A DNA stretch of 64,000 bases from Candidatus Cloacimonadales bacterium (GCA_963663475.2 CAXXJV010000001.1:1024001-1088000), one strand, 5' to 3'; shown: positions 5,354 through 25,216, numbered from the stretch's first letter. Notes: generated by a model from the sequence alone, not told the origin. Numbers and translations are program-made.

Positions 5354-5370
5354 TTTACCTTCCTATTGTT

Positions 5371-6663: not shown

Positions 6664-7239
6664 CTAATCTTTAAAATTATCTAAAATTTCAGTTAGCTTA
6701 TTTTGTAGCTCTTTTAATTCCTGAGGGATTTTGTTTAAGCTTAAAGTCCTAGTGATAGATGTTCTATTTTTCCAAACTACTTTAGCAAGCTTATCTTGAG
6801 TATATTCATACTCGTCAATCATGGTTTGTAGGGCATCAGCTTCTTCAAATGGGTCCAAGTCTTCGCGGACTAAATTCTCAATTAAAGATATTTCAAGAGC
6901 ATTCCCTTGAGTTAGGATGGCAGGGATTTTCTCTAGTCCTGCTAATTCAGAAGCTCTTAAACGCCTTTCGCCAGAAACTAATACTACCTTATTATCATCT
7001 TTTCTAACAACAATAGGTTGAATAGCCCCATGTCTCTTTATTGATTCTGCTAATTCTTTTAAGCTTTCTTCAGCGAGTTCTTTTCGAGGCTGATAAGGGT
7101 TATCTTTAATTATATCTAGAGGAATAGAATATATATTACTATCTTCTCTTGATAGATCTATATATTGAGATAATTTTACTGTTTTAGAAGCTGTTCTTTT
7201 TTTGGCTGACGTCTTTATACTGTAGTTTTTATTTCCCAT
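6664..7239 (-). CDS. parB: ParB/Spo0J-family protein, short (probably lacks the C-terminal domain)
   Basis: NPYQPRK, GERRLRA, ENLVREDL, HTH; only 191 aa. Confidence 0.85.
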   Translation of the reverse strand: MGNKNYSIKTSAKKRTASKTVKLSQYIDLSREDSNIYSIPLDIIKDNPYQPRKELAEESLKELAESIKRHGAIQPIVVRKDDNKVVLVSGERRLRASELAGLEKIPAILTQGNALEISLIENLVREDLDPFEEADALQTMIDEYEYTQDKLAKVVWKNRTSITRTLSLNKIPQELKELQNKLTEILDNFKD

Positions 7240-8486: not shown

Positions 8487-9247
8487 TTACCAACCAGTCA
8501 CTAACAGCCTTCTGGCGGCTTTAATCCCACAATTTTGATAATGATTGTATGCTTCAGCAGCTTTTTCTGCTACTTGTGCATCTGTTTGATTTAACAACCA
8601 CACATCGATTGACCATTTAATAGTATATGCCTCAGGTGCCATCAAGTTAGTAGTCCAGACTAAAGGATTAGCACCAGAATCAAAGAGATATTCTGCAAAA
8701 TACTTCTGACTAGCACAAGCTAAGATAATTGCGTCTATCTCTTTATCATTTTGTTGGAAAGTTGGCTCAATATGAAAGTCCATAAGACCGTTATGCCCTA
8801 TATAAGCAACTAAATTCGATTTACCACCAAACTTAAGAGTTGATGATTGAAAAGTTACTTCAGTTTCAAAGGCTGCATTACAGGCATAAAGAAAATCTAA
8901 AGTTGTCTGCTTAATCTCTTTTCCATCATAAGCATCAGCTAAAAGATAGGTATTTGTTGTCTTATGCTTAAAGAAAGCTCTTTCGAGAATAATATCTGTA
9001 GGATTATTGTAAGTTTCTACTAATGTCCACTCTTTACTATTCTTGAAATATGTTTTAATTCCATAGCCACACCCCCAGTATAGATTATTTTTTGGGTCCT
9101 GACCGTTACCAATACCCTTTGGGACTGGAACAATTCCTTGATTCACATTATCACAAGTGCTACAAAAATATGTATAGTTTGTAATCTATTTGCTGATAAT
9201 TCCAATAAGTTCAATAATAATAGTATAAATGTAATTGTGTATTTCAT
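8487..9247 (-). pseudogene. Conserved secreted hypothetical protein split by an apparent 1-nt frameshift at ~9155
   Basis: ATG 9247 gives a signal peptide + TIHIFVAL; adding one T (CTT-TGT-GAT) continues CDNVNQGIVPVP into the 8487..9146 ORF. Confidence 0.7.
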
Positions 9248-9449: not shown

Positions 9450-10583
9450 TTATTTGTTTAGTATTTCTTTTGCTTTATCAGCATTGCTTGAACTAACGAG
9501 AATTATAGGGCCAGTACAACCCATACCTGTTTCAGCATAGATGTTTTCTTGCCAAAGTTTTTGGCAAGCATCTTCAATTTCTAAGATATCAATACCAGAT
9601 ATTTGATAAGTAACAATCTCTTTTGCAGGTACTTGAATAATAGCATTAGACTTAGCTTTTTGCCCACAATGTAGCTTTAACAGGTCATTTAGTCCTGCTT
9701 TATTAGCTAGAGCAATTTCAGCACAATTAATTTTCATAATCTTATTAGTAGCAGATTTGGCACAGTAGCTTAAAGCACTAACTATCAAAGGAGCTCCAGA
9801 AGCTCTAGAAATAATGTTAATTAGATTAACACTACTATCTTCATTTGTTGGTAAACCAGGACCATAGCCAGAACCACTTGTTTCATAGTTACCACCACTA
9901 GTAAAGGCAGATAAGACTTTGATAAGTAGATTACCTGTTAGTGAATCACATACCATAATATCAGGTGTTCCCATCAGCAAATCATTACCTCGCATCACAC
10001 AACCACCATCAGCCCTAGCAGAAGTAGCAAAGTTTATATCATAGCCATTTGTCTTTAAATCTGTTAATAATTTTTCTACTTGTCTGGCTCCTTCAATATT
10101 AAGGATACCTACTTTTGGTTGTTCGATTCCATTTGCCTTAGCAGTTGCAATAGCAATAATAGTGTTTTTTACCATTGCTTCAACTCGGTTAATGGCTGTA
10201 GTTCCAGTAGTTGTGGCAATATACATTTCTTTTCCTAGACCAGGAGTAATAACTTTACCTACTGTGGAAACTCCGATAGGAAAGTCATAATGCAAAGTAA
10301 CTGCACCATCAATTTTATTATCAGTAAATAGTTTATTCATGATAGCATGAGCAGCTTCTAAGCTGTCTGCTTGATAATGTTCAAAATCACCTAGCTTTTT
10401 GCCAATAAGGACAGGTGTATATTCTTTTAGGTTAAAATTGCTAACTACTTGCTCCCAAATTTTATCATCATGCTCACTCCCAATAGTAGTCAAGGCAATC
10501 TTAACTTTGGGTGCATAATTGCCAGATAAAATATCATCAGCTATCTGGTTAAAGCTTTGGGCTATAACTTGCTTAGTTTTCAT
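9450..10583 (-). CDS. grdD: Glycine reductase component C, alpha subunit (PlsX-like)
   Basis: HYDFPIGVSTVG, MRGNDLL, catalytic GMGCTGP; last gene of the grd operon. Confidence 0.93.
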   Translation of the reverse strand: MKTKQVIAQSFNQIADDILSGNYAPKVKIALTTIGSEHDDKIWEQVVSNFNLKEYTPVLIGKKLGDFEHYQADSLEAAHAIMNKLFTDNKIDGAVTLHYDFPIGVSTVGKVITPGLGKEMYIATTTGTTAINRVEAMVKNTIIAIATAKANGIEQPKVGILNIEGARQVEKLLTDLKTNGYDINFATSARADGGCVMRGNDLLMGTPDIMVCDSLTGNLLIKVLSAFTSGGNYETSGSGYGPGLPTNEDSSVNLINIISRASGAPLIVSALSYCAKSATNKIMKINCAEIALANKAGLNDLLKLHCGQKAKSNAIIQVPAKEIVTYQISGIDILEIEDACQKLWQENIYAETGMGCTGPIILVSSSNADKAKEILNK

Positions 10584-10585
10584 TA

Positions 10586-12124
10586 TTAAACCTCTTGTTC
10601 ATTTGTTAATAACTCAGCAGTCTTCTTCATAGCCTGTGCTATCATAATTTTAATTTCATCTTTATCAATATGGTTATCTTCTTTTGCTTGGAGGCCAGGA
10701 TTCTTTTCAATAACCAGTGAGATTCCGTCAAAGAGATTAGTCATCCTTCCTAAGAAAAGAGAACCTTTACCAATAACCATAAAATTATCATAATCTCCTG
10801 CGAGAAGATGCTTTCTCCCATGACCAATAATAGGGACTCCAGAAGGAATATGTCCTTGGGTAGGAGCGAAGCCTTGGTAGCCATGTTCTTCAACAAATTT
10901 AGGCATGTCTTTTCTGTCTAATTGACCAGATTTTACTGCTAAAGCCCCAATCATTTTGATATTTTGGGTTGGTACGTCACCAGCTCCTGCAGGAAGAGTC
11001 ATTTCAGGAATTTGCATTTCAGCTGAGAATTTATTAATATCAGGAATTTTTTTACCAATTTTAGCTAAAGGATCTAGAACAAGAGCGGTAGTTACAGCTT
11101 GGGGAGAGGAGCCATGTCCTACTGTATGGCTACCTACAGAATCAGTTCTAATAATTGGATTTATGCCATCATTCTCACTGATTAGGATAGCAAAAGTTCC
11201 CAGAACATCTTCGAGAATTGGCATGTCTTTTTTTACATGGTCTTTACCATTCATTCCTAGTTTAGCTGTAGCTCCACCAGCCAAAATTACAACATTTTTG
11301 AAGATACCACTTTGGACAAGAGAGGCTGCATTTACAAGAGAATGAGTAGGAGCAGCACAGAATCCACGCATATCAACGCCAGTAGCATTTTTTAAGCCAA
11401 CAACTTCTGCGATAGATTTAGCAAGGTTTCCTCCACCACGCTGGTTTTGGTCTCCAATAGCTTCTTCAGAACACTCAATTACATAGGCTATATCATCAGT
11501 GTTAAGGTCTTTAACCAGATGTAGTAGTGCTAAGACACCAGAAGCTTTTACTGCAAGGTTTTCTAACATATAGTGAGATGATAAATTAGGGTCACTTTTA
11601 TGAGCATCAAGAACGCAAGCGACTAATTGACCTTTTTCATAAAGACCTTGGGCATTGTCAGCAAGATAGCTTTCAAGTTCAGTTTTTTCTATTCCATCTT
11701 TAATTTTATCAGTAAAGTTCTTTAATAATTCATGTTTACTAAATTTCTCTTTGATTCTCTGGGCAAAAGTACTTTCTAATTTTACTAGGTCAAAAACATC
11801 AGAGATTTGGATAAGGCCATAAAAAAGATCTTGAGGTAGAATTTCTCCAAAGAGTCCTTGCGGATTTGCATCTTTATCATAGTTGGCATACCAAGGTTTA
11901 GGAGCACTAGCTAAATCTTCAGGAGTCATGTTACCAATATAAGTTTGATAAGGGGCATAACCAACAACTTCCGCAAAGGAACGAAGATTAGATTCTAAAT
12001 TTTTTACATAATCAGAATTAGGATTCTTGCTTCTTTCGTTAGTTTGAGTTGTTCCATTATGAATCAACATATCAGGAGTATGCACTAGGGCATAAGCAGT
12101 CTTTTTTATAACAGGGAAATTCAT
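10586..12124 (-). CDS. grdC: Glycine reductase component C, beta subunit (FabH-like)
   Basis: ECSEEAIGDQNQRGGGN, GFCAAP, PTQGHIPSGVP. Confidence 0.94.
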   Translation of the reverse strand: MNFPVIKKTAYALVHTPDMLIHNGTTQTNERSKNPNSDYVKNLESNLRSFAEVVGYAPYQTYIGNMTPEDLASAPKPWYANYDKDANPQGLFGEILPQDLFYGLIQISDVFDLVKLESTFAQRIKEKFSKHELLKNFTDKIKDGIEKTELESYLADNAQGLYEKGQLVACVLDAHKSDPNLSSHYMLENLAVKASGVLALLHLVKDLNTDDIAYVIECSEEAIGDQNQRGGGNLAKSIAEVVGLKNATGVDMRGFCAAPTHSLVNAASLVQSGIFKNVVILAGGATAKLGMNGKDHVKKDMPILEDVLGTFAILISENDGINPIIRTDSVGSHTVGHGSSPQAVTTALVLDPLAKIGKKIPDINKFSAEMQIPEMTLPAGAGDVPTQNIKMIGALAVKSGQLDRKDMPKFVEEHGYQGFAPTQGHIPSGVPIIGHGRKHLLAGDYDNFMVIGKGSLFLGRMTNLFDGISLVIEKNPGLQAKEDNHIDKDEIKIMIAQAMKKTAELLTNEQEV

Positions 12125-12157
12125 TTATTAATCCTCACTATATATTTTTTGTTTGGA

Positions 12158-12185
12158 CTGGGCTGTAAGCAATCTCACAGCCCAG
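12158..12185. other. Intercistronic stem-loop between grdB and grdC
   Basis: CTGGGCTGT...ACAGCCCAG; no U-tract on the coding strand, so possibly an mRNA-stabilising hairpin. Confidence 0.5.
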
Positions 12186-12192
12186 ATTTTTA

Positions 12193-13494
12193 TTATTTTT
12201 CAAAGATAGTTTGCTCACTTATCTCAGTTTGTAAGGCTTCTAAAGCTCTTTCAACAAGAGAATAACGTAATTCATATTCCTTATCTTTACTTAGGTTAGG
12301 ATCACCTAATGGATGTGGGATAGCCACAGTAGGTAAGATTCTATTAGCTCCGACAGTAAGAGATATTGGAGTAATAGTACACATGTGAACTACTGGCAAT
12401 AATCTTTCAATTTCTTTAACTAACGTTGCACCGCAACGAGTACAAGTTCCTCATGTAGAGGTTAGAATAACAGCGCTAACACCATCTGCAACTAGCTCTT
12501 TAGCAATTTCAGCACCCCATTTCTTGGCATCAGCAACAGCAGTACCGTTACCAGTAGTAGAGTAGAAGTAATTATGGAGTGAAGCAATTTTACCTTCTTT
12601 AACCATGTTTCTAAGAACATCTACAGGGATTACCCTATCACTGTCTTGGTTAGCATAAGTTGGGTCGTAACCACCATGAGCTGTCTCGTATGTATCAGCA
12701 GTCAAATCACTAACACCAGTGATATCATATTTTCCATACTTTGAAGCACTAGATGATTCGATGTGGTCTGGATTACCTTTTGGAACAATTCCTCCCGAGG
12801 TAACAATAGCAATTTTTGCCTGTGTGATATTCTCTACTGGAGCATGTGGTTCTACACTATCAAAAAGAGGCATTGGAAACTCTGTAGTAAAGTCTTCATT
12901 ACGAAGTTTTTTAACTAAGAGATCAACAGCTCTAGCAGAGCCTCTTTTGTCTGCGAAATAATTAACTCTGATACCACGTGGAATATAGCCTTCAGCTTGT
13001 GGATTTCCAATCTCTTCTTTGTTGATAATCTTTTTTAAGAACTTTCCTAAGGCTGGGAGAGCTTTTCTCATGCCAGCAGCACTATTGCTTGTTTCTAGAA
13101 TGTAAGCATCTTTAACAAACATTTCTACACCAGGATTCTCAGGGTACATGGCTGTGACAACTGGAATGCCCAATTCGTTCTTAACCGCTTGGCAAATAGC
13201 TCCGCAAGCAACACCATATCTTCCTGCATTAAAAGCAGGACCTGCAACAAAGATATCAGGGTTATATTTCTTAATCATTGTGATGATTTCAGCTTTAGCT
13301 TGTTCCATGTTTTCATTGAAATAGGTATCACCACATATCACTGTTGCAACTATCTCTGCCTGTCCCTTCAACTGGCTATTTAAACCTAATCCAGGACCTA
13401 CAAAACCTTGTCTTACTTCAGGTTTATGATTGGCAAATTCTTCTCCACCAATTCCTCCATAGAATTGATTTATATAATGTACAATTTTAATCAA
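12193..13494 (-). CDS. grdB: Glycine/sarcosine/betaine reductase selenoprotein B (433 aa, Sec348)
   Basis: ORFs 12451..13494 and 12193..12399 are one frame joined across TGA (12451-12453): ILTST-U-GTCTRCGATLVKEIER (UxxCxxC); TTG start with AGGAG RBS. Confidence 0.95.
12424..12438 (-). promoter_or_regulatory. Candidate bacterial SECIS hairpin of grdB
   Basis: CGTTGC-GGT-GCAACG starting 13 nt 3' of the UGA, G in apical loop. Confidence 0.65.
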
Positions 13495-13530
13495 TTTTAA
13501 CTCCTTGATTAAATAAGTGAAATACTTTAC

Positions 13531-13998
13531 CTAAGCAGAACAACTGCTTCTGATTGCATCCATCTCATCACAAATAGCTTCAACATCTAATACCATTTCC
13601 ATCATTCCACATTGGTCGTCATAGACTTGTGGATCGCAATTGTCCTTGATAATAGGCTCAACTACATGGTAAACAGGAAGATCTAAAGCAATGCCAGCAA
13701 GTGGGCCAGCAAATGTAGGGTCTCCAGTGAGAACTGTTTCAGCAGCCAATCCAGCAGCTTCAGCTTCAGCTCCACCTAGAATTACAACTAAATTGTCTTT
13801 TCCTTCTTTTTCTGCAAAATCTTTAACTCTTTTTTGGATCTCCAGATCCATGGCTCCAGCCGCTGTTCAAACAAAGCATTCTGTTGAAGCAAAAATAACT
13901 TCCGCTCCTAATGTTTTTACAACTTCAGCTATAGCAGGTCCTGGTATTCCATCTCTATCACCAATTACTATTGCTTTTTTACCTTTGAATTCTTGCAT
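13531..13998 (-). CDS. grdA: Glycine reductase selenoprotein A (155 aa, Sec44)
   Basis: AGGAG RBS, ATG 13998: [23 protein letters not shown]...STECFV-U(TGA 13867-13869)-TAAGAMDLE; CxxU motif. Confidence 0.95.
13835..13850 (-). promoter_or_regulatory. Candidate bacterial SECIS hairpin of grdA
   Basis: TGGATC-TGGA-GATCCA starting 17 nt 3' of the UGA. Confidence 0.65.
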
Positions 13999-14018
13999 TT
14001 TATTATTCTCCTTTATTA

Positions 14019-15305
14019 TTAATATCCTTTGGCACTTAAATTATGAAAGCCAACCTCTGATGTAGAACCTGTAATAAGTTGAATTTCTGCTTCAATAGAA
14101 CCATCTTCTCTTAAGGAACCTTGGTGGCCACCTGCTATCTTATGAGCTGCTTCTGGATGACCAATGACCCTTTGCATTGGCTTTAATACTATCACCTGAT
14201 TAGCATTACCCCCTGTAACAACGGCATCGCCTGCTGGGGTTGAATCTGCTAAAGATTGTGACCCACCATCTTGGCCAGCATATTCATCAGTCATTAAAAC
14301 TGTCTTGATACCTTTGGCTGAGATCTTATTACAGTTCATAACTAAGTCAGCATCAGGATTACCAAAGCCTTCTTCAGAAATTATGACTGCGTCTGCACCC
14401 ATAAACTCAACTAATTTAGCTGTCATATCAGAAGATCTTTTCTTATCTGCTAAATAAACATTTTCGTTTGTAATCACCACTCCTAAGAAATTATATTCCT
14501 TACCATGAAGAGCATATAAATCTTCAATTATTGGATGATTTTGATGGACATAGGTAGGATTTTTATCACAGGCAGAAACACAGTTTCCACTCAAAACAGC
14601 ACCATCAAAGACCTCAGTTGGATAGATTATGCTAGGTATGATTTTTTTAACATCTACTCCATAAACATAAGTATCGTGAAGTAATCCTTGACTCTGTAGC
14701 ATATAGACATAGACTACTTTGGGAAGGTCAGGATATTGGGCTGCTTGCTCTAATAGAGGTTTTGTCTCAAAAGTAGTAATTTGATCAGGCTCTAGATCTT
14801 TAGCAAGTTTTCCTAACCAGGAAGCAGCATTTAATCCAATTAAACGAACAGCTTCTTCATGCTCATGAGCATCAATACCATCTATTGGCTCACAAGTAAT
14901 TACCAGGTTGTTTAGCTTAGAGAATGGAGTGTATTTAGCCCCTTCCCCTGCCATGTCAATTATCCCTTCTTGGAATCCTACAATCCTACCTGTTGTTACA
15001 ACTGCCATACCCTTTAAGACATGAGTTCTTCCTGAACCAACTGTATCTACAGGACCTATCATACCAGGGAAGATAGTTCCAGATCCAGATACTTTTACCC
15101 GTGGCTCAATAACATCTTTAACTGGGATGATTCTGATGTCTTCACCAGGCTTAGCAATATCCAGAGCAAGGGACTTTATTCTCATATCAGTAGATAATTC
15201 AGTCAGCATTTCTTCCTTATTAATATAAAGAATACCTTGGTCAATTCTAGTTGTTTCAGAAAACTGAATATCTTTTATCTCGATTTTTCCAATTTCTAGT
15301 TTCAT
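14019..15305 (-). CDS. grdE: Glycine reductase component B proprotein (alpha/beta)
   Basis: [32 protein letters not shown] cleavage region, EEGFGNPD; start taken at MKLEIG (15305). Confidence 0.93.
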
Positions 15306-15318
15306 TTGCTTATCTCGC

Positions 15319-15654
15319 TTATAGATTTTTATAAATTGCTGCAATAAAGCTGTCTATGTTATCAATATCCTCATCAATTTCATCTGGAGAAATTCTCCCC
15401 ATAATATCACCTTGAGAATAGATAATCATTGCTGGTAAACCCATAACTTTCTGACTAATAGCAAGTCTACGAGCTCCCTTAATATTCAAACTTGCGAATT
15501 TGATTTTATCACTATATTTAGCTTCTAACTCGTGCACTCCTGGCATAAGCTCTTTACAAATTTCACAACCATCACTCCAAAAATCAACAAATACAGCCTT
15601 GTCTTTACATTCAAGAACTTGGGCTTCAAAATTGTCTTTTGTTAATTCAATCAT
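15319..15654 (-). CDS. trxA: Thioredoxin of the glycine reductase system
   Basis: VDFWSDGCEICK CxxC motif; position in operon. Confidence 0.9.
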   Translation of the reverse strand: MIELTKDNFEAQVLECKDKAVFVDFWSDGCEICKELMPGVHELEAKYSDKIKFASLNIKGARRLAISQKVMGLPAMIIYSQGDIMGRISPDEIDEDIDNIDSFIAAIYKNL

Positions 15655-15665
15655 GATTTCTCCTT

Positions 15666-15941
15666 TTATATTATTTTACTTAAATCATTTAAGTTGTTTG
15701 AAGTCACTATTTTCTTTATCTCTCCCTTCTCTATTCTTAGAATAGTTGGAATGTTGGTGATACCATACTTAGAAGCTAGCCTCTGATTCTTATAAGCATC
15801 AATTTTAACTAACTTTGTCGATGTTTGTTTAGCATGAATCTTTTCTAAATCAGAAATTGCTTGCATACTGTTAGAATCAATCGGACTCCAGAAGGCTACT
15901 AAGACAGGATCTGCACTATCTCTAACTTTCTTATTCCAATT
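15666..15941 (-). pseudogene. Cys-less thioredoxin-fold domain in frame with trxB, separated by a single TAA
   Basis: After trxB ...KYIEEE-TAA the same frame reads NWNKKVRDSADPVLVAFWSPIDSNSMQAISDLEK...KYGITNIPTIL; no RBS for an independent start. Confidence 0.7.
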
Positions 15942-16874
15942 TTACTCTTCCTCAATATACTTTTCTGCCACAACTGCTGCTACAGCACCGTCGCCAGCTG
16001 CAGTTACTACCTGACGTAAAACCTTATCAGTTACGTCACCACAAGCAAAAATACCAGGAATGTTTGTCTCCATTCTTTCATTTACTTTGATATATTTCTG
16101 AGGACTTAACTCAATTAAACCTTCAACAAAAGTGGAACGAGGAACTGTTCCTACAAACATAAATACTCCATCACAAGCAAACTTACTTTCTTGGCCTGTT
16201 TTTACATTCTTAAGCATGACGTGATCAACCATATCCTCTCCACCAATCTCTGATAGAGTTGAATTCCAGATAAATTCAATTTTTTCATTCTCCATTGCTT
16301 TCTCTTGAGCAACTTTATCTGCATCCATTATGCCTTGGTCATGGATTACTATCATGGTTACTTTATTGACAAACTTAGTTAAGTATATTGCCTCTTCCAC
16401 TGCTGTATTACCATTTCCTACTACAACAATATCTAAATCTTCAAAAAAATCTGCATCACAAGTAGCACAATAGCTTACCCCTCTTCCTCTGAAGGTATTT
16501 TCACCTCTAATTCCTAAAACTCTAGGTTCTGCTCCACTTGCTATGATTAGAGTTTTACTCACAAAAGTCTTGTCTTTAGTTATGATTCTCTTTAAAAAAC
16601 CACCATCTTCCAACTCTACTTTTTCTACCTTGCCCTTGGTAAATTCAACACCAAATTTATCACAATGTTCTTTGAATTTATCCATTATTTCAGGTCCAGA
16701 AGCAGATGGGAAACCTGGATAATTTTCCATCTCACTGGTAGTAGCTGCTTGGCCACCTGTCTTTCTCTTCTGCTCAATAACTAATGTCCTCATCTTAGCA
16801 CGAGCGGCGTATATGGCAGCTGATAAGCCACCTGGTCCACCACCAACAATTATTGTATCATAAATCTTTTCCAT
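15942..16874 (-). CDS. trxB: Thioredoxin reductase
   Basis: GGGPGG FAD motif, SYCATCD redox motif, GIFACGD, QVVTAAGDG. Confidence 0.95.
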   Translation of the reverse strand: MEKIYDTIIVGGGPGGLSAAIYAARAKMRTLVIEQKRKTGGQAATTSEMENYPGFPSASGPEIMDKFKEHCDKFGVEFTKGKVEKVELEDGGFLKRIITKDKTFVSKTLIIASGAEPRVLGIRGENTFRGRGVSYCATCDADFFEDLDIVVVGNGNTAVEEAIYLTKFVNKVTMIVIHDQGIMDADKVAQEKAMENEKIEFIWNSTLSEIGGEDMVDHVMLKNVKTGQESKFACDGVFMFVGTVPRSTFVEGLIELSPQKYIKVNERMETNIPGIFACGDVTDKVLRQVVTAAGDGAVAAVVAEKYIEEE

Positions 16875-16886
16875 TAGAACTCCCTT

Positions 16887-17261
16887 CTATTCCATCGCTT
16901 TTAATATTAAATCATAATCAATAGTCTGATAATCTCTGAGGATTTCTTGGTCTCGAATTTCTACAGGCCTATCAGTAAGGAACTTAACATAACTTGCTTT
17001 AGCTTGTTCAATTAATTCTATTGATTCAAAATCAATCCTATTTGCAGGTCCATCGGAAACAACTATAGTCCGGTAGAGTGTTTCATTTGGTTTTAAAGAA
17101 CTATGTAGGGGATGGGTTAATAATTTATAATTCTTATGGAGTAAATCTCTTACCTTGACTATTATTTCAAGGGCAGATATATCTCTATAATCAACTTGCA
17201 ACGAGCTAATATTTAACTCTTTGAACATTGGGTTATTAGTTATTATAATACCTTTTTTCAT
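16887..17261 (-). CDS. grdX: GrdX-family protein
   Basis: IITNNP, LLTHPL.SSLKPNET.YRTI; first gene of the grd operon. Confidence 0.88.
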   Translation of the reverse strand: MKKGIIITNNPMFKELNISSLQVDYRDISALEIIVKVRDLLHKNYKLLTHPLHSSLKPNETLYRTIVVSDGPANRIDFESIELIEQAKASYVKFLTDRPVEIRDQEILRDYQTIDYDLILKAME

Positions 17262-17330
17262 TTTGTCCCCTATTATAAAATGATTAATGAGTAATTATTA
17301 CTCAATATTACTTAATATAATTATATATAT

Positions 17331-17346
17331 TGCATATATCGTGCCA
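17331..17346 (-). promoter_or_regulatory. sigma54 (-24/-12) promoter of the grd operon
   Basis: Minus strand TGGCACGATATATGCA: GG-N10-GC, 70 bp upstream of the grdX ATG. Confidence 0.8.
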
Positions 17347-17528
17347 AAAATATTAAAATAAGATTATTCTACTTTCTGATAATTAGGGATATTAAAGATA
17401 GTGCTAAAACTTGTGATATCATGCTATGTGAGAGTTATACTTGCAGGAATAAAGAGGGAAAATTATTTACATAGAATAATTTATTAGAGATTATAATAGC
17501 GAAAAAGTAAGAAGATTGGTATAGGATA

Positions 17529-17563
17529 TGGGTAAATAATACCCAATGAGGATTAAATACCCA
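17529..17563. promoter_or_regulatory. Tandem 17-bp palindromes, candidate enhancer (UAS) for a sigma54 activator
   Basis: TGGGTAAATAATACCCA (17529-17545) and TGAGGATTAAATACCCA (17547-17563), ~185-215 bp upstream of the -24 box. Confidence 0.65.
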
Positions 17564-17579
17564 CTTAAAAATAGGGAAA

Positions 17580-18914
17580 TTACTTATTCTGATTCAAATC
17601 AAGCTTCTTTCTCAGGGTTTTTCGATCAATAGAAAGAATCTCAGCAGCTTTAGATTTATTACCTCCAGTAAATTCTAAGACTCTTAGTATGTGTTCTATT
17701 TCTACCTCTTCAAGTGTCTTAAGAATATCACTAGATTCTTTAAGATTAGTTTTCATATAGTCTGGTAAATCGCTTTTAGTTATTAAACCATCATCATCGA
17801 AAACTATAAGTCTCTGGATAATATTCTCCAACTCTCTAACGTTACCAGGCCATTTATAATTTTTAAGCATTTGCAAGACTCCGTCATCAAATTGAGGAAC
17901 TTGTTTATTAAATTCACGGGCGAATTTAGAAGCAAACCAAGAGCTTAATTGCAGGATATCGTTGCCTCTATCTCTGAGAGGAGGAAGGTCTATTGAGATA
18001 ATATTAAGTCTGTAATAGAGGTCTTCTCTAAATTTTCCAAGTTTAACAAGTTGAGCTAAGTTTTTATTAGTAGCAGCTAATATTCTCACATCAATTTTTA
18101 CAGGTTTATTAGCACCGACCATATAGAATTCTTTTTCTTGGAGAACTCGTAATAGTTTAAGTTGGAGCATTGTAGAGGTTTCAGAAATTTCATCAAGAAA
18201 TATTGTTCCCTTATTAGCAGAATGGAAAAAGCCTTCTTTGGTATGGTCTGCTCCAGTGAAAGAACCTTTAATATGGCCAAAGAGTTCGCTCTCTAGGAGA
18301 GATTCTGGTATAGCTCCACAGTTAATGGGTACAAAGGGGGCAGAAGCTCTATAGCCACTGTAGTGAATTGCTCTGGCAACTAATTCTTTACCAGTACCTG
18401 ATTCACCATTAATAATTATTGTAGAGTTGATAGAGCAAGTTTTTTCGATAATCTTAAAGATGCTTTGCATTTCTTGGGAAGAGCCTATAATACCAAACTT
18501 TTCCCCAATTTTAGACAGGGTTGGGTTTTCTAAAGATTCTCTGTCGTTAAGTTTGTTAAGAACTTCCTCAACACTTTTTAAGAGCTCTTCAGAAGTAAAG
18601 GGTTTGGCTAAATAATTTTCAGCTCCAGCTTTGACTGCTTGCACAGCTGAATCAATAGTAGGATAATCTGTAATAATCATTGCTTGAGTTTTAGGGTGGT
18701 GTTCATTGACATATTTGACCACATCTAAGCCATTAATTTCTGGTATCTGCAAGCCAGTAATGAGCAAGTTTATCTTCAGTTCAGTTAGAATTTCACGGGC
18801 TAAGGAGAAGGTTGTAGTTGTATAGACTTGGTAACCTTTACGAACTAAGTTTCTTTTAATTATTTCTAGTGTTTTTTGGTTATCATCAAAGATAAGGATA
18901 CTTGCATTATTCAT
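17580..18914 (-). CDS. NtrC-family sigma54 activator with pseudo-receiver domain (Asp54->Gly)
   Basis: GESGTGKE, ESELFGH.KGSFTGA, FLDEI, FREDLYYRL, WPGNVRELEN, Fis-type HTH; receiver beta3 reads NLLITGLQIP. Confidence 0.92.
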   Translation of the reverse strand: MNNASILIFDDNQKTLEIIKRNLVRKGYQVYTTTTFSLAREILTELKINLLITGLQIPEINGLDVVKYVNEHHPKTQAMIITDYPTIDSAVQAVKAGAENYLAKPFTSEELLKSVEEVLNKLNDRESLENPTLSKIGEKFGIIGSSQEMQSIFKIIEKTCSINSTIIINGESGTGKELVARAIHYSGYRASAPFVPINCGAIPESLLESELFGHIKGSFTGADHTKEGFFHSANKGTIFLDEISETSTMLQLKLLRVLQEKEFYMVGANKPVKIDVRILAATNKNLAQLVKLGKFREDLYYRLNIISIDLPPLRDRGNDILQLSSWFASKFAREFNKQVPQFDDGVLQMLKNYKWPGNVRELENIIQRLIVFDDDGLITKSDLPDYMKTNLKESSDILKTLEEVEIEHILRVLEFTGGNKSKAAEILSIDRKTLRKKLDLNQNK

Positions 18915-20415
18915 TAGTTACCTCTTTATGAACAGGGAATTGGAGGGTGAAAATAGTGCCATTACCTGGGGATGATTGGAATGAGATAGAACCACCATTT
19001 GCTTCGATAAGGTCTTTAGCTACAGAAAGACCGATACCTGTACCAATATTTTCTTTTTTGGTTGAGAATAAGGGATTGAAAATCTTGTGTTTTACTCCTG
19101 GGTCAATACCTATACCATTATCTGAAACTGTAATAATAACATCATTATCGTTTAGTTCACTTGTAATTTCTATCAAGCCAGTTTTATTCTTAATAGCTTG
19201 TTCTGCATTTAGCAGGATATTGATAAGTATCTGATGAAACTGAGATGGATCAATTAAGATAGAAGGTAGGTTAGGATGTAAATATAGTTTGATACTTATA
19301 TCTTTTCTATTGGATCGAGCTTGGACAAGCATCAAGGCAGATTTAATATTCTGATTTACATCAACTCTTTCAAGTTTACTAGCAACTTCACCTGAAAAGT
19401 GCATCAGTTTCTTGATAATATCACGAGCAGATAGGGAAGCATTAATAATCCTGTTAAGATCTTTTTTAGCATAGTCATCTAGGCTATCATTAGTAGAAAG
19501 TAACTGGGAGAAACCTAGAATATCATTGAGAGGTTCATTGAGCTGAATTGCTACACCAGAAGTTAGCTGACCTAAAGTAGCTAATCTATCAGTATGACGT
19601 AATTGCTTGAAATATTGAGTGTTTGATGTATTGGAAAATTTATTTTCAATAATATGATTTAGTTCTTGAGCAATATCTTTGATTAGTTCTTTCTCAACTT
19701 GGAGGAAGGGGTATTCTGCCTGGGAGAGTATTTCTTGGGGATAAGTAATTTCTAAGAAGCCAACAATTTGCTTATTTAATACCAGGTCAGTCTTCATAGA
19801 AAGAATACTTTCCATAAAGTTTTTGGTAGCAACTAAATGATTACAACATTTTATTCTTGCTTGGGCTAAGTGGTTAAAAGTCCAGGTTGAAGCAATTACC
19901 ACAACAGCTTTTTCCAGAAATTGTTCAAGAGAAATATCCGGAACAAGGGCTAGTGATTTAATTTTATAAAGACAGATAATTTCTTTTGCTCTTTGAATTT
20001 GAATAAACTTAGAGAAGAGTGTATCTAGCATGAGGAAAATGAAGGTGCAAATAGAATCGATTTCTTGGCTAGTGCATTTATTATTTATCAAGATATTGAA
20101 ATCATTTTCTTGCTGGTAACTCTTTGTAATTAATCTTAAAGAGGGATTAAGAGCTAATATTTCTTTAATGGAGATGTTTTTCAAAGAATTATAATGGTTA
20201 TTGTTGTCAAGATTATCTATACTTAAAAACCAATTCCTGCTTAAATACTCACTTTTGATAAAATAGTTACCTATCCTGTAAATAAGTACACTATCTGAAT
20301 AGAGGAGGTTATCTTCTAGTACCTTATGTACATATCTAAGATAAGAGCGATAACTCTTATTGTTCTCGCTCTTATTGTTTAATTCTAATATTATTTTCTC
20401 AAGTTTTGATATCAT
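18907..20415 (-). CDS. Soluble NtrB-type histidine kinase-like protein lacking the phospho-His
   Basis: N, G1 (DNGIG), F and G2 (GTGIGL) boxes intact; H-box reads LGQLTSGVAIQLNEPL instead of ...GVAHELNxPL. Confidence 0.88.
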   Translation of the reverse strand: MISKLEKIILELNNKSENNKSYRSYLRYVHKVLEDNLLYSDSVLIYRIGNYFIKSEYLSRNWFLSIDNLDNNNHYNSLKNISIKEILALNPSLRLITKSYQQENDFNILINNKCTSQEIDSICTFIFLMLDTLFSKFIQIQRAKEIICLYKIKSLALVPDISLEQFLEKAVVVIASTWTFNHLAQARIKCCNHLVATKNFMESILSMKTDLVLNKQIVGFLEITYPQEILSQAEYPFLQVEKELIKDIAQELNHIIENKFSNTSNTQYFKQLRHTDRLATLGQLTSGVAIQLNEPLNDILGFSQLLSTNDSLDDYAKKDLNRIINASLSARDIIKKLMHFSGEVASKLERVDVNQNIKSALMLVQARSNRKDISIKLYLHPNLPSILIDPSQFHQILINILLNAEQAIKNKTGLIEITSELNDNDVIITVSDNGIGIDPGVKHKIFNPLFSTKKENIGTGIGLSVAKDLIEANGGSISFQSSPGNGTIFTLQFPVHKEVTNE

Positions 20416-20591
20416 GGATTTAGTTAATTATAGCTTCTTAAATCCGTCAAGTACTCTTTAGCCCAAATTGTAGTAGGCTTTTGTGAATAGCTAAGTATCT
20501 GCACTCTTTATTAAACCCTAATTGTGCTATTCAGCAGAGATCTAATGCATTATTTTGGGTTAAAGTCCTACTAGATCATTGAGAGTTAGTA

Positions 20592-22010
20592 TTACAAGGA
20601 TTTCTTATGAAAGGCAAGTCCTATCTTAGGGTTAGTTATTGAATTTGGACCAGCTATACAGCCACCTTCACAAGCCATTACTTCCATGAAATTAGTGTCT
20701 AATTTCCCCTCAAGAAAAGCCTTAATTCTAAGTCTCGTCTTTTTATCAATACCATTGATAATTTCTGCTTTAAAATCTGCATCTGCTGGAAGATTTAACT
20801 GGATTGCTTGACTAACCCCTTGGCTAACTGCAAAGTTACGTGCAGGAGAAGAACCTGTAAGACTAGGATGCTCTGCTGGTAAATCATTCATTTGTATGTC
20901 ACTAGCAGCTAACATAGCTCCAACCTCTTCAAAAGAAATAACATAATCAGTGTTGGGGTCTGATAATGCTTCACATTTTTTTGCAATACAAGGTCCGATA
21001 AAAACACTGATAGAGTCTGCATCTCTTCTTTTAACCTCCTGGGAAGTATATTTCATAGGAGACAGGGTTGTTGAAACAAATTCAAGTTTGTCTGCTTGAT
21101 GCTTTTCTATATAGTTAACATAGGCAGGACAGCAGGAAGAGGTTAAGGCTGGTTTGCGGATTTGAGATAGTTCTAACCATTCATGAGCTTCTTTTTGACC
21201 TGTTTCTATAGCTCCGTAAGCTACTTCAACTACCTCTGAAAAACCTAACTTTAAAAGGCCTGAAATTATCTTTTCGTAGGCAAGAGTAAACTGGCCAGCT
21301 ATAGCTGGAGCAATCATTGCTACTAGTTTTTTCCCTTTTTTTAATTGCTTTATAACAAAGGGCATTTGTGATTTTTCAAAGATAGCACCAAAAGGACAAG
21401 CATTCATGCATTTACCACAAAAAATACACTTAGTGAAATCAATTTTTGCTATACCATTCTCATCTTTAGAGATAGCATCAACAGGGCAGACTTCTTGGCA
21501 GGGGACAGGTATATAAGTTATGGCATGATAAGGGCAGGCTTCTAGGCATTTCCCACAGTTTTTGCAAAGTTCAGCATCTATTTCTGTATGCCCATTCTTA
21601 AAAGATATTGCTTTAGCAGGACAGTTCATCATGCAGGGTCTGGCTACACAGGCTCGGCAAGCATTGGTTACGAAATAGCTATTTTTTGAACAAGCAGAAC
21701 AGCCCTCGTTTAGTACAGTTAAAAAATTAGCATCAATTTGAGGTTGGTCTAATCTCTCTTCTGCAAATTCTTTAATACTTTTTAATTCATCATCTTCCTC
21801 GTAGCCTACACCAAAACAAGCTAAGGCTGCTGATCTAGTCACAGCTCTTTCTTTATAAATACAGCATCTAATGGAAGATTGACTACCTTTAGGTGTCATC
21901 ATAACTGGTAGTTTGTTTAATTCACTTAGGTCTCTATCATTTAAGAGAATGTCAGCAATTCTAACTTTTAGATCTCTTCTTAATAAGATAGTATTATTTA
22001 TCTGAAACAT
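20592..22010 (-). CDS. Monomeric [FeFe]-hydrogenase with extra ferredoxin domains (HfsD-like, group B)
   Basis: H-cluster motifs TSSCCPA, GPCIAKKCE, EVMACEGGCIAG; several CxxCxxCxxxCP; RCCIYKERA. Confidence 0.9.
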   Translation of the reverse strand: MFQINNTILLRRDLKVRIADILLNDRDLSELNKLPVMMTPKGSQSSIRCCIYKERAVTRSAALACFGVGYEEDDELKSIKEFAEERLDQPQIDANFLTVLNEGCSACSKNSYFVTNACRACVARPCMMNCPAKAISFKNGHTEIDAELCKNCGKCLEACPYHAITYIPVPCQEVCPVDAISKDENGIAKIDFTKCIFCGKCMNACPFGAIFEKSQMPFVIKQLKKGKKLVAMIAPAIAGQFTLAYEKIISGLLKLGFSEVVEVAYGAIETGQKEAHEWLELSQIRKPALTSSCCPAYVNYIEKHQADKLEFVSTTLSPMKYTSQEVKRRDADSISVFIGPCIAKKCEALSDPNTDYVISFEEVGAMLAASDIQMNDLPAEHPSLTGSSPARNFAVSQGVSQAIQLNLPADADFKAEIINGIDKKTRLRIKAFLEGKLDTNFMEVMACEGGCIAGPNSITNPKIGLAFHKKSL

Positions 22011-22012
22011 GA

Positions 22013-22276
22013 TTACTCCTTGATATTGAAAATACTGTTAAGGTAGGCTATTAGCTTATCAACATTGGCTTGACAGAGTAAGTGGTCACCTACCATAACG
22101 AAGGGTGCACTAGAAGCTGCGTATTCTTTACAATTACCTAAGCAAGGAGAACCATAAATTTCAACTTGATTATTATATCTTTCTTCAATCTCTTTTTTGT
22201 AAATTAATATTTCTGAAGAACCCATTAAATGACAAGTCGTTCCACAACATACTGTTATTCTTATTTGATTTTCCAT
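22013..22276 (-). CDS. Thioredoxin-like [2Fe-2S] ferredoxin (NuoE-like)
   Basis: CCGTTC...CLGNC...APFV. Confidence 0.85.
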   Translation of the reverse strand: MENQIRITVCCGTTCHLMGSSEILIYKKEIEERYNNQVEIYGSPCLGNCKEYAASSAPFVMVGDHLLCQANVDKLIAYLNSIFNIKE

Positions 22277-22288
22277 TTTATCCTCTCA

Positions 22289-23485
22289 CTATACAAAGTT
22301 TATTTTTACATCTTTTAAATATCTATCTTCCAAGACTTTTCCAATTCGCCTAATAGTATTACGTCTAATACCTAGCTCAATAGGCATGTTAGGGTCTTGA
22401 TGGGCATCATTAATTTTAGTCCCAACATAAAAATCTATAATATCACTGCTCAAGAATAGTTTGACTAACTTAGTTGCCCCATTATCAATTTTAATGTTCT
22501 CTATAAATTCTTTACTTTTTAAGTACTTCAAGCTTTCTCCCATTGTTATCATTCCCTCAGTAACTAAGTCTATACCTGACATAAAGGAAGAACAGGGAAC
22601 AATAGGATCTAAAGTAGAAATATCAACCTCAACATCTCTATTGAGTTGTCTTGCTAATATTTTAGCTGTAGTTCCTCCACAAATAGCTTTTTTACCTTGG
22701 TAACTGTTAAGAATTTCAGCTAAATATTCATCCTTGTCAGGGTTGATGGGAGGACCAGTTAAAACTACTAGTTTTCTAGGCTTACGAATATTTATGACAC
22801 AGCAGGTAATATCATCTTGGGCTTTGTAATTACTATTGGCAGAAGCATGTTCTACAATTTCTTGGGCAAAACTTCTGGCTGATAAATTTGGGTATTTCTT
22901 AACTAGAAATTGAGCAAAATCTTTAACATTCTCTATCCCCCAACCTAAGGGGTAGGCATTTGACCCCATACCTGATTGGTTAACACCATCGGAGAAGAAA
23001 ATCAATTTGTCACCTAATTCTAGCTGAAAATTGGACATGTTTATGGTATATTTCCGTTTGATATTTTCTATTTTTCCTTGATAGCTTTTTATATAAGGAT
23101 CCATCAACTTATCACCCCTAAGCAAGATAAAAGGAGGATTGTCATAATCAACAATACTGCACTTGCCTTGATAATCAATATCGACTATAGTAAATGTTGC
23201 ATAACTTATTTTGCGAATACTATCTACAGGAAGGGTATTCATTATTGTTTCAGCAGCCTTAATAATATCATACTTATTGCAAGAGTAGGTTAAAGCCATT
23301 TTGGCTGTCATAGAAGAAATAACATTGGCTCTGACTCCGCTACCTAGTCCATCTGAAAGAGTTGCTATTATGCGTTTATCATCCTTAACCTTTGTGCTTA
23401 GAAAGGTATCTCCACAGACCTTTTGTCCATATTTAAACTTCTGAACATAATCTACTTCTATAAAGAAATTATTATTTATCTGCAT
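22289..23485 (-). CDS. SpoIIE/PP2C-family Ser/Thr phosphatase (HfsC-like)
   Basis: CGD, LSDGLGSG, FSDGV, DDITC; C-terminal ICGGTTA domain. Confidence 0.88.
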   Translation of the reverse strand: MQINNNFFIEVDYVQKFKYGQKVCGDTFLSTKVKDDKRIIATLSDGLGSGVRANVISSMTAKMALTYSCNKYDIIKAAETIMNTLPVDSIRKISYATFTIVDIDYQGKCSIVDYDNPPFILLRGDKLMDPYIKSYQGKIENIKRKYTINMSNFQLELGDKLIFFSDGVNQSGMGSNAYPLGWGIENVKDFAQFLVKKYPNLSARSFAQEIVEHASANSNYKAQDDITCCVINIRKPRKLVVLTGPPINPDKDEYLAEILNSYQGKKAICGGTTAKILARQLNRDVEVDISTLDPIVPCSSFMSGIDLVTEGMITMGESLKYLKSKEFIENIKIDNGATKLVKLFLSSDIIDFYVGTKINDAHQDPNMPIELGIRRNTIRRIGKVLEDRYLKDVKINFV

Positions 23486-23494
23486 AACTACTAC

Positions 23495-25216
23495 CTAATC
23501 AGAAACATTTTCAGTTTTATCAATACCAGAGACATCTATAATAGAATTTAAGGCTATCTCAACTTCTGCTGCATTTTCTCCTAAAAGAAAGGCTATTTTC
23601 TGAACCATATCTAAATTCTTGTTAATTACATTTTTTGCCTGACTTATTGTATGGCCTCTAGCTACTGAGGGAAGAGTAATATCTTGGAGAACAGCTCCAA
23701 CTAATTCATGCTTCTCAATAGAGAATATAGATATTTTTAAATACTTTTCTCCATAACGTAATTCCTTATCTAAAATATCATTACCTTTATCAAGAACTTG
23801 CTTAAACATGCCAGTAAAAGATATCATTTTATCTAATCTGGCTCCATCTAAATCAATTGCATCTGTAGCGAATTGCTCATCTAGACCTAAGATTTTAAAG
23901 AAATTATCATTTGTTTCTTGAATAATCATCTCTTTATCAACAATTATAACTCCAGAAGGCATGGTTCTAAAAAGGGCAGAAGCTTTTTTCTGGGCTAATT
24001 TTCTTAAGTAAGAAACACACATGGAAGCTTCAGCTTTCCCCTCAATTATAGCTTGAGCAAATTCACGACAGGTATTATAGCCACAACCACCACAATTTTT
24101 TTCGTCTTCAGGGCGATTCTTTCCTATTTTGCGAAAAACTTCAGTAATAGTCATTTCTTTATTAATATTATTAGTCAGTTCAATATGTTTATAAGCTTGG
24201 CTAATATCTAATTGAGCTGGTCTTTCTGTCTTTTTTCCAATATATTTATTCTGATTTAAAATATCGATTTCTTTAAGTAAATAGGATTTATCTTTAAAAC
24301 AGGCAGGTCCATTAATACAACCACCTTTGCAAGCAAGAGTCTCCAAGAATATGTTGTTAGTGAGTCCTTTTGCTATCAAGTCATTGAAGAGTTTGCATAT
24401 ATCATCAGTGCCAGAAATAGAGTAACATTGATAGTCACTAGTTTTACTTAGAGCAAGAGTATTAATCATACCCCCTTCCACAGGATAGAGACTTCCCTCC
24501 TGGGCACAAGTTGGTAAGAAATCACAATTATTCTCAGCCTCTAAATGATAAGGATCTATCTTTGAATCTGCAAAGAACTTGTGTAAATCTTTGAAGGTTA
24601 TAGCTAAATCTAAGAGGTCTTGGTGATTATCTGATTCCACTTTTTTAGAAATGCAAGGACCAATAAAAGCAATTAAGTAGTCTGGACCAAAATGCTTTTT
24701 TAAGATTCTGCAATGGGCTAATAAGGGTGAATCTATAGGTATTAAAGAAGAAACTAGCTGAGGGTAATATTTCTCAATTAGTTCTACGATTGTAGGACAG
24801 GCTGTAGAAATCTGAATCCCTTTACTAGTACTTAAATACTGAGTTAAGCTACTGTTTACCTCTTCTGCTCCCAAAGCTGTTTCGGAAACATGGCTTATAC
24901 CTAATTTCTTGAGGCCAGAAATTAGTTTTTCCTTGGGTAAATTAGGAAACTCACTTTTCCAAGAAGGGGCTAAAGAGATTATTATTTTTGCATTTCTTGA
25001 TAAGAGAAGTTTTAATTTAGACAGATCATCTCTGATACTCTTGGCATTAACAGGGCAAATATCAACGCAATGACCACAGTGAATGCAGAGTTCAGGAATA
25101 ATAGAAGCATGATGATTTTCAACTTTGATAGCTTTTACTGGACAGCCTCTCACACACTTATAACAGTCTTGGCACTCAGCAAATTTAGTAAATACAGGTA
25201 AATTATTAGGGTTCAT
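23495..25216 (-). CDS. Sensory [FeFe]-hydrogenase-like protein with FeS and PAS domains (HfsB/HydS-like, group C)
   Basis: 2x[4Fe-4S] N-terminus; variant motifs STACP, GPCISKK, LACKGGCING; CGGCGYNTC; PAS-like C-terminus. Confidence 0.88.
   Translation of the reverse strand: MNPNNLPVFTKFAECQDCYKCVRGCPVKAIKVENHHASIIPELCIHCGHCVDICPVNAKSIRDDLSKLKLLLSRNAKIIISLAPSWKSEFPNLPKEKLISGLKKLGISHVSETALGAEEVNSSLTQYLSTSKGIQISTACPTIVELIEKYYPQLVSSLIPIDSPLLAHCRILKKHFGPDYLIAFIGPCISKKVESDNHQDLLDLAITFKDLHKFFADSKIDPYHLEAENNCDFLPTCAQEGSLYPVEGGMINTLALSKTSDYQCYSISGTDDICKLFNDLIAKGLTNNIFLETLACKGGCINGPACFKDKSYLLKEIDILNQNKYIGKKTERPAQLDISQAYKHIELTNNINKEMTITEVFRKIGKNRPEDEKNCGGCGYNTCREFAQAIIEGKAEASMCVSYLRKLAQKKASALFRTMPSGVIIVDKEMIIQETNDNFFKILGLDEQFATDAIDLDGARLDKMISFTGMFKQVLDKGNDILDKELRYGEKYLKISIFSIEKHELVGAVLQDITLPSVARGHTISQAKNVINKNLDMVQKIAFLLGENAAEVEIALNSIIDVSGIDKTENVSD

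Follow-up and report, generated by a model that had tools for sequence, protein, structure and literature searches.

A histidine kinase homologue without its phospho-histidine and an NtrC1-like activator without its phospho-aspartate lie upstream of a Cloacimonadales glycine reductase operon

Results

A kinase homologue and an activator without phospho-residues precede grdX

The DNA analysed here, called the window throughout, is a stretch of 64,000 nucleotides from a Candidatus Cloacimonadales bacterium (GCA_963663475.2, CAXXJV010000001.1:1024001-1088000). Two genes on its minus strand, overlapping by 8 bp, encode a histidine kinase (HK) homologue and a response regulator (RR) of the bacterial enhancer-binding protein (bEBP) type, which acts with sigma-54. 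A 318-bp intergenic spacer separates the RR gene from grdX, the first gene of a glycine reductase operon, and holds a putative enhancer and a -24/-12 promoter (Table 1). A preliminary description of the window had claimed that the His-Glu dyad of the HK H-box is replaced by Ile-Gln and that Gly stands at residue 54 of the RR, the phospho-Asp position, in two full-length genes. The codon positions it gave are exact to the base, and the two open reading frames (ORFs), of 502 and 444 amino acids, are uninterrupted.

Pfam finds in the HK a HisKA domain (residues 281-341; 31.4 bits against a cut-off of 26.9) and a HATPase_c domain (80.9 bits). In a phmmer alignment its 'vaIQlnepl' pairs with 'vaHEirnpl' of ZraS (9jfj), and Ile290 falls on the phospho-acceptor His of ZraS and of all 17 canonical relatives described below. 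The next position, acidic in HisKA kinases and Glu in every aligned outgroup, is Gln291 in ten of ten members of the clade to which the HK belongs. The N, G1, F and G2 boxes of the ATP-binding domain, previously described as intact, are invariant across these ten members (N399, N403, D432, G434, G436, F446, F450, G458, G460 and G462).

The AlphaFold2 (AF2) model of the HK has a mean predicted local distance difference test score (pLDDT) of 70. A poorly modelled N-terminal part is followed by a long helix, a PAS/GAF-like alpha/beta domain (about residues 163-260), a dimerization and histidine phosphotransfer (DHp) domain of two long helices (about 266-341) and a GHKL ATP-binding domain (about 349-495). 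Foldseek searches with the whole model returned the cores of ZraS, HK853, CckA and DivL (4q20), plus LOV/PAS-kinase chimeras. Although the Pfam search gave no domain N-terminal of residue 281 and no PAS match, GAF-like entries lead for the sensor region in Atlas (0.91-0.94), and we are confident in predicting a PAS/GAF-like fold for it. The sensor signature C148, R187, E222, Y225, F237, L238 and E241 is invariant and common to the canonical relatives linked to glutamate dehydrogenase (GDH), which suggests a metabolic signal related to theirs. With no His-Glu dyad, purifying selection (see below) and an operon shared with an RR, the protein is a pseudo-histidine kinase as defined in PMC12632262; this and the other papers are cited from the excerpts available.

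The RR matches Response_reg (77.6 bits), Sigma54_activat (228.2 bits) and HTH_8 (47.6 bits) in Pfam, with AAA_lid_14 also matched. The AAA+ and helix-turn-helix (HTH) motifs that it was said to keep are all present, namely GESGTGKE (Walker A), FLDEI (Walker B), GSFTGA and the HTH. In the AF2 model (mean pLDDT 79.5) the receiver (REC) fold is well formed, with pLDDT of about 90, and helix alpha-5 continues to residue 129, but the acceptor position is Gly54. The remaining active-site residues, D10, D11, T82 and K104, are invariant in the clade. The closest solved structure is Aquifex NtrC1 (4l4u, E 5.7e-101; 1ny5, E 9e-94), and the alignment with 1ny5 has zero net indel across REC, linker and AAA+. 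Through Gly54 the receiver falls within the pseudo-receiver (PsR), or aspartate-less receiver (ALR), definition in the excerpt of PMC12632262. Elsewhere in the same genome, the four other receiver-type bEBPs all have the Asp, and 15 of the 22 other kinase-like ORFs have the His at its column; the remaining seven are unaligned there (four), gapped (two) or shifted by one residue (one).

Table 1 Features of the window
Feature	Position	Strand	Basis or remark
His-less histidine-kinase homologue (pseudo-HK), 502 aa	18907-20415	minus	ORF, Pfam, AF2 model, Foldseek, clade alignment
H-box dyad, Ile290 (ATT, 19546-19548) and Gln291 (CAG, 19543-19545)	19543-19548	minus	His-Glu in the family
NtrC1-like sigma-54 enhancer-binding protein with Asp-less receiver (pseudo-receiver), 444 aa	17580-18914	minus	Pfam, phmmer, AF2
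Gly54 (GGC) at phospho-acceptor Asp position	18753-18755	minus	Gly in 9/9 of clade, Asp in 12/12 aligned outgroups
Asp83 (GAT) at T+1, Gly in canonical relatives	18666-18668	minus	Asp in 9/9 of clade, Gly in 12/12 outgroups
Putative enhancer (upstream activating sequence, UAS), two 17-bp sites 1 nt apart	17529-17563		conserved island against G001
Enhancer site 1	17529-17545		+ strand TGGGTAAATAATACCCA; perfect palindrome TGGGTA-N5-TACCCA
Enhancer site 2	17547-17563		+ strand TGAGGATTAAATACCCA; TGGGTA-N5-TCCTCA
A+T-rich block between enhancer and promoter	17475-17502		conserved in G000/G001 alignment
-24/-12 sigma-54-type promoter	17331-17346	minus	TGGCACGATATATGCA (TGGCAC-N5-ATGCA); same in G001
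Third palindrome TGAGTA-N5-TACTCA, related to enhancer half-sites	17288-17304		leader, between promoter and grdX ribosome-binding site
Glycine reductase operon grdX-trxB-trxA-grdEABCD	9450-17261	minus	NCBIfam
grdX	16887-17261	minus	113.5 bits, cut-off 40
trxB	15942-16874	minus	TrxB 362 bits, cut-off 343
Cys-less Trx-like ORF	15666-15941	minus	between trxB and trxA
trxA	15319-15654	minus	
grdE	14019-15344	minus	only good match the sarcosine GrdG model, 638 against cut-off 780
grdA (Sec)	13531-about 13998	minus	161.1 bits, cut-off 130
grdB (Sec348)	12196-13494	minus	gly_red_sel_B 687.2 bits, cut-off 602.2
grdC	10586-12124	minus	752.1 bits, cut-off 450
grdD	9450-10583	minus	506 bits, cut-off 350

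The two losses are fixed together in one clade

We surveyed 41 genomes of one order, that of the window (G000; 3.30 Mb, 33% G+C, two contigs) and those of 40 relatives. In 20 of them a gene for a close homologue of the kinase lies next to one for an activator. Seventeen of these pairs have His-Glu in the HK and Asp54 and Gly83 in the RR. The other three, from G000, G001 and G005 of one genus, have Ile, Thr or Asn followed by Gln in the HK and Gly54 and Asp83 in the RR; the genus has seven genomes in the set, and every one that carries the pair shows this state.

Protein searches extended the clade. The HK had 31 matches at E <= 1e-40 in a collection of 5.8 billion proteins, of which ten (46-100% identical) were aligned with six of the other 21. 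His is absent from all ten, residue 290 being Ile, Thr, Ser, Thr, Thr, Thr, Asn, Met, Asn and Asn in turn, each time followed by Gln, and the six aligned outgroup proteins read His-Glu. For the RR, nine matches at least 75% identical were aligned with 12 of the remaining 111 listed (260 were found), and Asp is likewise absent from all nine (Table 1). A form that has lost only the His or only the Asp was not seen among the genome pairs and aligned proteins. According to the excerpt of PMC12632262, 0.9% of HisKA domains have no His and 2.0% of receivers have no Asp, so the matched loss is far from what independence would give. Contig searches for further DNA of the clade returned only G001 among genome contigs and, among metagenome contigs, only one identical to G005. 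One candidate member, L054 (43% identical), was rejected as an unrelated canonical kinase.

Other changes accompany the losses. In the receiver, D54G, G83D, T103A and D108S are fixed, all around the active site; position 83 is T+1, counted from Thr82, and at the genome loci it is Asp in the three clade pairs and Gly in the 17 outgroups. The fixed HK changes include E291Q and Asp at H+8 (Asp298). The kinase-regulator interface has been rewired at HK853 A268, A271 and T275 and RR468 V13, L14, I17 and N21 (4jas, 4jav), with H260 and D53 named as phospho-sites in 6rh8, according to the titles of these entries. By offset from the phospho-sites, HK H+8 and RR D-40 are the equivalents of HK853 A268 and RR468 V13. 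Across the family these two positions are Gly/Val or Thr-or-Asn/Asp, and in the clade without phospho-residues they are Asp298/Lys14. This fits a docking surface that may still be in use, now with a possible salt bridge. No clade-invariant, clade-specific His was found in the DHp domain: H274 and H339, considered as alternative phospho-histidines, are each missing from one of the ten members, and H274 also occurs in outgroups. Two Ser residues are specific to the clade, S108 in REC (nine of nine) and S286 at H-4 in DHp (nine of ten).

Independent sequences and purifying selection support both genes

In each of three separate studies a single Logan contig covers all of 17203-20450, with 10, 10 and 24 differences from the window, and a fourth run covers the same interval in pieces. 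The runs that contain the stretch are labelled wastewater, bioreactor or microbial mat, and none of those listed is an RNA run. The contigs from independent studies have zero differences at the four key codons. Thirty-four contig differences divide into 6 intergenic, 13 in the RR gene and 15 in the HK gene. Those in the RR are 13 synonymous and 0 non-synonymous (pN/pS 0; P 2e-9) and those in the HK 12 synonymous and 3 non-synonymous (pN/pS 0.067; P 2e-6), the P values being taken under a crude neutral expectation with runs pooled and mutation bias ignored. One of the only three non-synonymous variants seen is a Leu/Phe polymorphism at HK residue 89 (20151), where both the cluster representative P0001 and contigs from several runs depart from the window.

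Between species, dN is 0.15-0.28 for the HK and 0.06-0.09 for the RR. The corresponding dS exceeds 2.6 or could not be computed; as most pairs are saturated or yield no value, the ratio is used as a bound only. Selection on the two genes is not relaxed, and the DHp and REC domains are among the best conserved. Mean identity in the clade is highest in DHp (0.79), against 0.71 in the catalytic and ATP-binding (CA) domain and 0.60 in the sensor, and in the RR it is 0.87 for REC against 0.89 for AAA+. In DHp helix 1, 22 other positions are invariant while the former His site holds five different residues; constraint was released at that site only. The losses are an old, fixed character of the clade, neither error nor decay.

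The region upstream of grdX carries a conserved enhancer and promoter

The tandem 17-bp sites and the -24/-12 promoter described earlier in front of grdX are all present and form conserved islands against G001. The perfect palindrome of site 1 occurs once in the 3.3-Mb genome. The promoter TGGCACGATATATGCA lies in a conserved stretch of about 44 nt, in which G001 differs at one position, and is one of nine matches to the -24/-12 pattern in the whole of G000. The genome encodes RpoN (171.7 bits). At the level of sequence, then, the locus combines sigma-54, a -24/-12 promoter and an upstream enhancer, as for a group I bEBP. The A+T-rich block between enhancer and promoter is possibly a DNA-bending site, which is a guess. 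The third palindrome, whose core GTAATAA-TACTC is retained in G001, could act as an operator or form an RNA hairpin.

Canonical relatives share the layout and lie beside other genes

Within the 5.6-19 kb fetched around each of the 17 canonical loci, no grd genes were found. At the three that were annotated, a GDH gene and genes for PPDK_N-domain proteins adjoin the pair (L025:8942-15991, L023:11763-18051 and L028:1386-5818). One of the large PPDK_N-domain proteins has a receiver-like stretch, and a nucleotidyltransferase domain is present in another; in L023 the regulator is separated from its target by an inserted Fic gene.

A site resembling TGGGKA-N5-TMCCCA (at most two mismatches) lies within 600 bp after the RR gene at seven of the 17 loci, and at one of them two such sites stand 18 bp apart, like the arrangement in the window. 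The strict -24/-12 pattern occurs downstream on the same strand within about 700 bp at five of the 17, and a sixth has it directly before the dehydrogenase gene. Palindrome and promoter layout being present in canonical relatives, the enhancer-promoter module is therefore ancestral and its target has been exchanged.

The glycine reductase operon and its neighbourhood

The operon encodes GrdX, a thioredoxin system, GrdE, selenoproteins A and B, GrdC and GrdD. Read with TGA as selenocysteine (Sec), GrdB passes the glycine model of NCBIfam and stays under the sarcosine and betaine cut-offs. The Trx-like ORF between trxB and trxA has no CxxC, with 'FWSPIDSNSMQ' in place of WCGPC. It is open from just past the trxB stop, and its first ATG would give only 66 amino acids; it may be a redox-dead Trx paralogue or a remnant.

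GrdX and GrdC are found in exactly the same three of the seven genus genomes as the pair without phospho-residues, and across the order GrdC was found in four of the 41 genomes. No such pair adjoins the nearest other grd-type cluster of the order, that of G023, which has biotin-synthesis and fatty-acid genes upstream. This cluster (contig C22, L123) has a different gene order and GrdE- and GrdB-like proteins only 40-48% identical, and possibly serves another substrate. A short contig of G001 (C314, L124) carries a second, divergent grdC-grdD copy, 57% identical.

Directly upstream of the HK gene, 20592-25216 (minus) encodes a HydA-like [FeFe]-hydrogenase homologue, an 87-amino-acid Cys-rich ORF, a SpoIIE/PP2C phosphatase and a hydrogenase-like protein with Fe-S and weak PAS matches, which together look like a sensory-hydrogenase signalling module. 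A short distance downstream of grdD lie ParA- and ParB/Noc-like genes (6664-7991, minus), and near them three ORFs without family matches (4418-6330, 8487-9146). Given that only three of the seven congeners have grd, the region may be an acquired island.

Discussion

The preliminary description proposed that selection maintains a pseudokinase and pseudo-receiver pair placed at the glycine reduction genes. Clade fixation, purifying selection and the conserved enhancer and promoter all support this proposal, and of the refuting observations that it named, canonical His or Asp in reads or close orthologs, relaxed selection and an invariant alternative His were looked for and none was found. It did not mention the Gly83Asp change at T+1, the variable former His site, the descent from a canonical GDH-linked pair or the sigma-70-like match at the promoter. 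We consider it probable that the pair is a two-component-derived switch that works without His-to-Asp phosphotransfer, by stoichiometric contact as in NifL/NifA. The cytoplasmic pseudo-HK keeps its sensor domain, its DHp dimerization helices and a GHKL domain, predicted to bind nucleotide, which may report ATP/ADP; the phospho-His and the catalytic Glu are gone. The receiver would still gate assembly of the AAA+ ring in the manner of NtrC1, in which, according to the excerpt of PMC12998190, the unphosphorylated REC dimer keeps the AAA+ domains inactive and apart; this is suggested because the REC-linker-AAA+ spacing equals that of NtrC1. Docking of the kinase homologue is indicated because DHp, the interface and the nucleotide pocket are conserved in proteins without His or Asp. 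Signal-dependent docking on the receiver, the AAA+ domain or both would move the gate, with either an activating or an anti-activating effect, and from the tandem TGGGTA-N5-TACCCA sites, to which it would bind some 200 bp upstream, the RR would open the -24/-12 promoter of grdX in a presumably sigma-54-dependent manner.

Several observations weigh against this interpretation. The case for contact between the two proteins comes from conservation, and the covariation at H+8 and D-40 is thin, with three states in few independent lineages and an equivalence set by offset, not by a solved complex. The invariance of D10, D11, T82 and K104, together with the new D83, suggests a pocket that is still active in some way, for which pure docking has no need. 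The ratio of HK to RR dN is 2.6-3.3 in the pair without phospho-residues and 1.1-1.9 in six canonical pairs, from which the HK appears somewhat less constrained than usual; its faster change would also fit a partly relaxed accessory role. A sigma-70-like element, TTGGCA-16-TATAAT (11 of 12 positions), overlaps the -24/-12 element (17320-17347, minus), and dual promoter use at grdX is possible on this evidence. Finally, the adjacency of the pair to grd was checked in G000 and G001 only, as the contigs of G005 break there and the other members are represented by proteins only.

One alternative, which we regard as unlikely, is that the activator is constitutive and its partner idle. Gly54, Asp83, Ala103 and Ser108 would fix the receiver in a state that is 'on' or does not repress, grd would be on whenever the RR is made, and the HK would be kept for some other reason or only by translational coupling. 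With T82 and K104 next to it, a fixed acidic residue at T+1 could stand in for a phosphoryl group, and the excerpt of PMC12632262 reports acidic residues enriched at T, T+1 and T+2, the beta4-alpha4 loop, in pseudo-receivers. The raised HK dN relative to canonical pairs and the freedom of the former His site to vary would also fit. However, an idle HK is hard to square with a pN/pS of 0.067 (12 synonymous and 3 non-synonymous changes), with DHp as its most conserved domain, with ATP-binding boxes invariant down to 46% identity, with invariant sensor signature residues or with the joint change of H+8 and D-40.

It is also conceivable, and in our view improbable, that the phosphochemistry was moved or altered, Asp83 being phosphorylated by a small donor such as acetyl phosphate or the GHKL domain acting on Ser/Thr of the HK or RR. 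Acetyl phosphate is a product of glycine reductase and a known phosphodonor for receivers. Asp83 arose exactly with the loss of Asp54 in a pocket whose D10, D11, T82 and K104 are invariant, the ATP-binding boxes are kept, and S108 and S286 are clade-specific candidates. Yet S286 is not invariant and the DHp domain offers no clade-invariant, clade-specific His. Small T+1 residues normally give access to the site (excerpt of PMC12632262), and no precedent for a T+1 acyl phosphate was found in the excerpts of the pseudo-receiver literature searched. In the most specific form of this reading, acetyl phosphate would charge Asp83, which would serve as a new acyl-phosphate acceptor or bind a phosphoryl group non-covalently, with the HK as an ATP/ADP-sensing scaffold or dephosphorylation partner. 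We hold this version to be highly unlikely; if true, it would mean product feed-forward on grd and a relocated phospho-site wired to a metabolic acyl-phosphate.

A ligand-gated receiver, in which the pocket emptied at Gly54 (D10, D11, D83, T82 and K104) binds a metal or small anion and so gates the AAA+ domain with the HK as an auxiliary, is again improbable. It would explain why four of five active-site residues and a new carboxylate are all invariant and why T103A and D108S cluster around the pocket. It leaves the strong DHp conservation and the covarying interface pair unexplained, however, and none of the analyses run pointed to a ligand. Recent inactivation, or sequencing or assembly error at the two codons, could account for the absence of both key residues and for a former His site that differs among species, but is scarcely credible for a state shared by ten HKs and nine RRs down to 46% and 75% identity, with zero stops or frameshifts, concurring independent contigs, a synonymous to non-synonymous ratio of 25:3 and proteins still 65-93% identical at saturated dS.

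The interest of the pair lies in the joint loss of its phospho-residues while it stayed under strong selection, with the nucleotide pocket intact and an interface that apparently still co-evolves. Together with close canonical relatives in which the DNA site and the arrangement of the promoter are the same, it provides a natural before-and-after set for studying how His-Asp signalling may pass into contact signalling. For the Cloacimonadota, which ferment amino acids in anaerobic digesters and wastewater, the pair is also a first candidate for a regulator of glycine reduction; no grd regulator in this phylum was found in the literature searched.

Among known systems, the nearest in terms of target are the Stickland reductases of Clostridiales, which are under sigma-54 bEBPs, PrdR for prd and SarR for grdGF (excerpt of PMC6615313). 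These share with the window a dedicated activator, an enhancer and a -24/-12 promoter before selenoprotein reductase operons. However, PrdR and SarR belong to another phylum and are not receiver-type activators with a kinase partner, and the PrdR model matches only over residues 120-440. Glycine reductase was not found among the sigma-54 Stickland regulons in that excerpt.

In terms of family, the best NCBIfam matches are AtoS/ZraS for the HK and NtrC/AtoC for the RR, not NifL/NifA, and the DHp-CA core aligns to that of ZraS (9jfj). The scores nevertheless all fall far short of equivalog level (AtoS 196 bits, cut-off 646; AtoC 395 bits, cut-off 714), and unlike ZraS/ZraR and AtoS/AtoC, the window pair has no His, Glu or Asp, and has another sensor domain and another target operon. 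The RR resembles Aquifex aeolicus NtrC1 (4l4u, 1ny5), and with it negatively regulated bEBPs of the DctD type, in its REC-linker-AAA+ spacing, GAFTGA-type loop and HTH_8 domain. NtrC1 is switched by phosphorylation of an Asp, whereas the RR has Gly there and an Asp at T+1.

DivL of Caulobacter is likewise a His-less kinase homologue that binds a response regulator without phosphorylating it (excerpt of PMC4211667). Its partner DivK is a normal phosphorylated receiver and it has Tyr at the His site, whereas in the window pair both partners are dead and the site is variable. Pseudo-receivers such as FleQ, FrzS, RitR and ChxR also keep the receiver fold with an active-site residue missing (excerpts of PMC12632262 and PMC4395418), but the window receiver is encoded with a matched, equally dead kinase. 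Only 2 of the 20 atypical regulators discussed in the excerpt of PMC12632262 are not orphans, and how pseudo-receivers are activated and inactivated is, in the words of this 2025 review, 'a mystery'. In the excerpt of PMC4395418, the 2015 ALR survey has no characterised receiver with Gly at the Asp site.

The closest functional parallel is NifL of Azotobacter vinelandii and Klebsiella, a HK homologue without phosphorylation activity whose GHKL domain binds ADP and which blocks the bEBP NifA stoichiometrically (excerpt of PMC12998190). Both systems have a non-phosphorylating HK homologue with DHp and GHKL domains and an adjacent gene for a sigma-54 activator, nucleotide binding being predicted for the window protein. 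However, NifA lacks a receiver and carries a GAF domain, and a FAD-PAS domain is present in NifL, whereas the RR has Response_reg and the HK has no PAS/FAD match. In NCBIfam the best matches of the HK include neither a NifL nor a NifA family, and NifA matches only the AAA+ part of the RR. No matched His-less and Asp-less pair of the NtrB/NtrC type was found in the literature searched; pseudo-kinases and pseudo-receivers are each already known, and it is their matched occurrence in one operon that appears to be new. The pair looks like a descendant of a canonical GDH-linked two-component system, of independent origin from NifL/NifA, and thus also bears on how a NifL/NifA-like system can arise.

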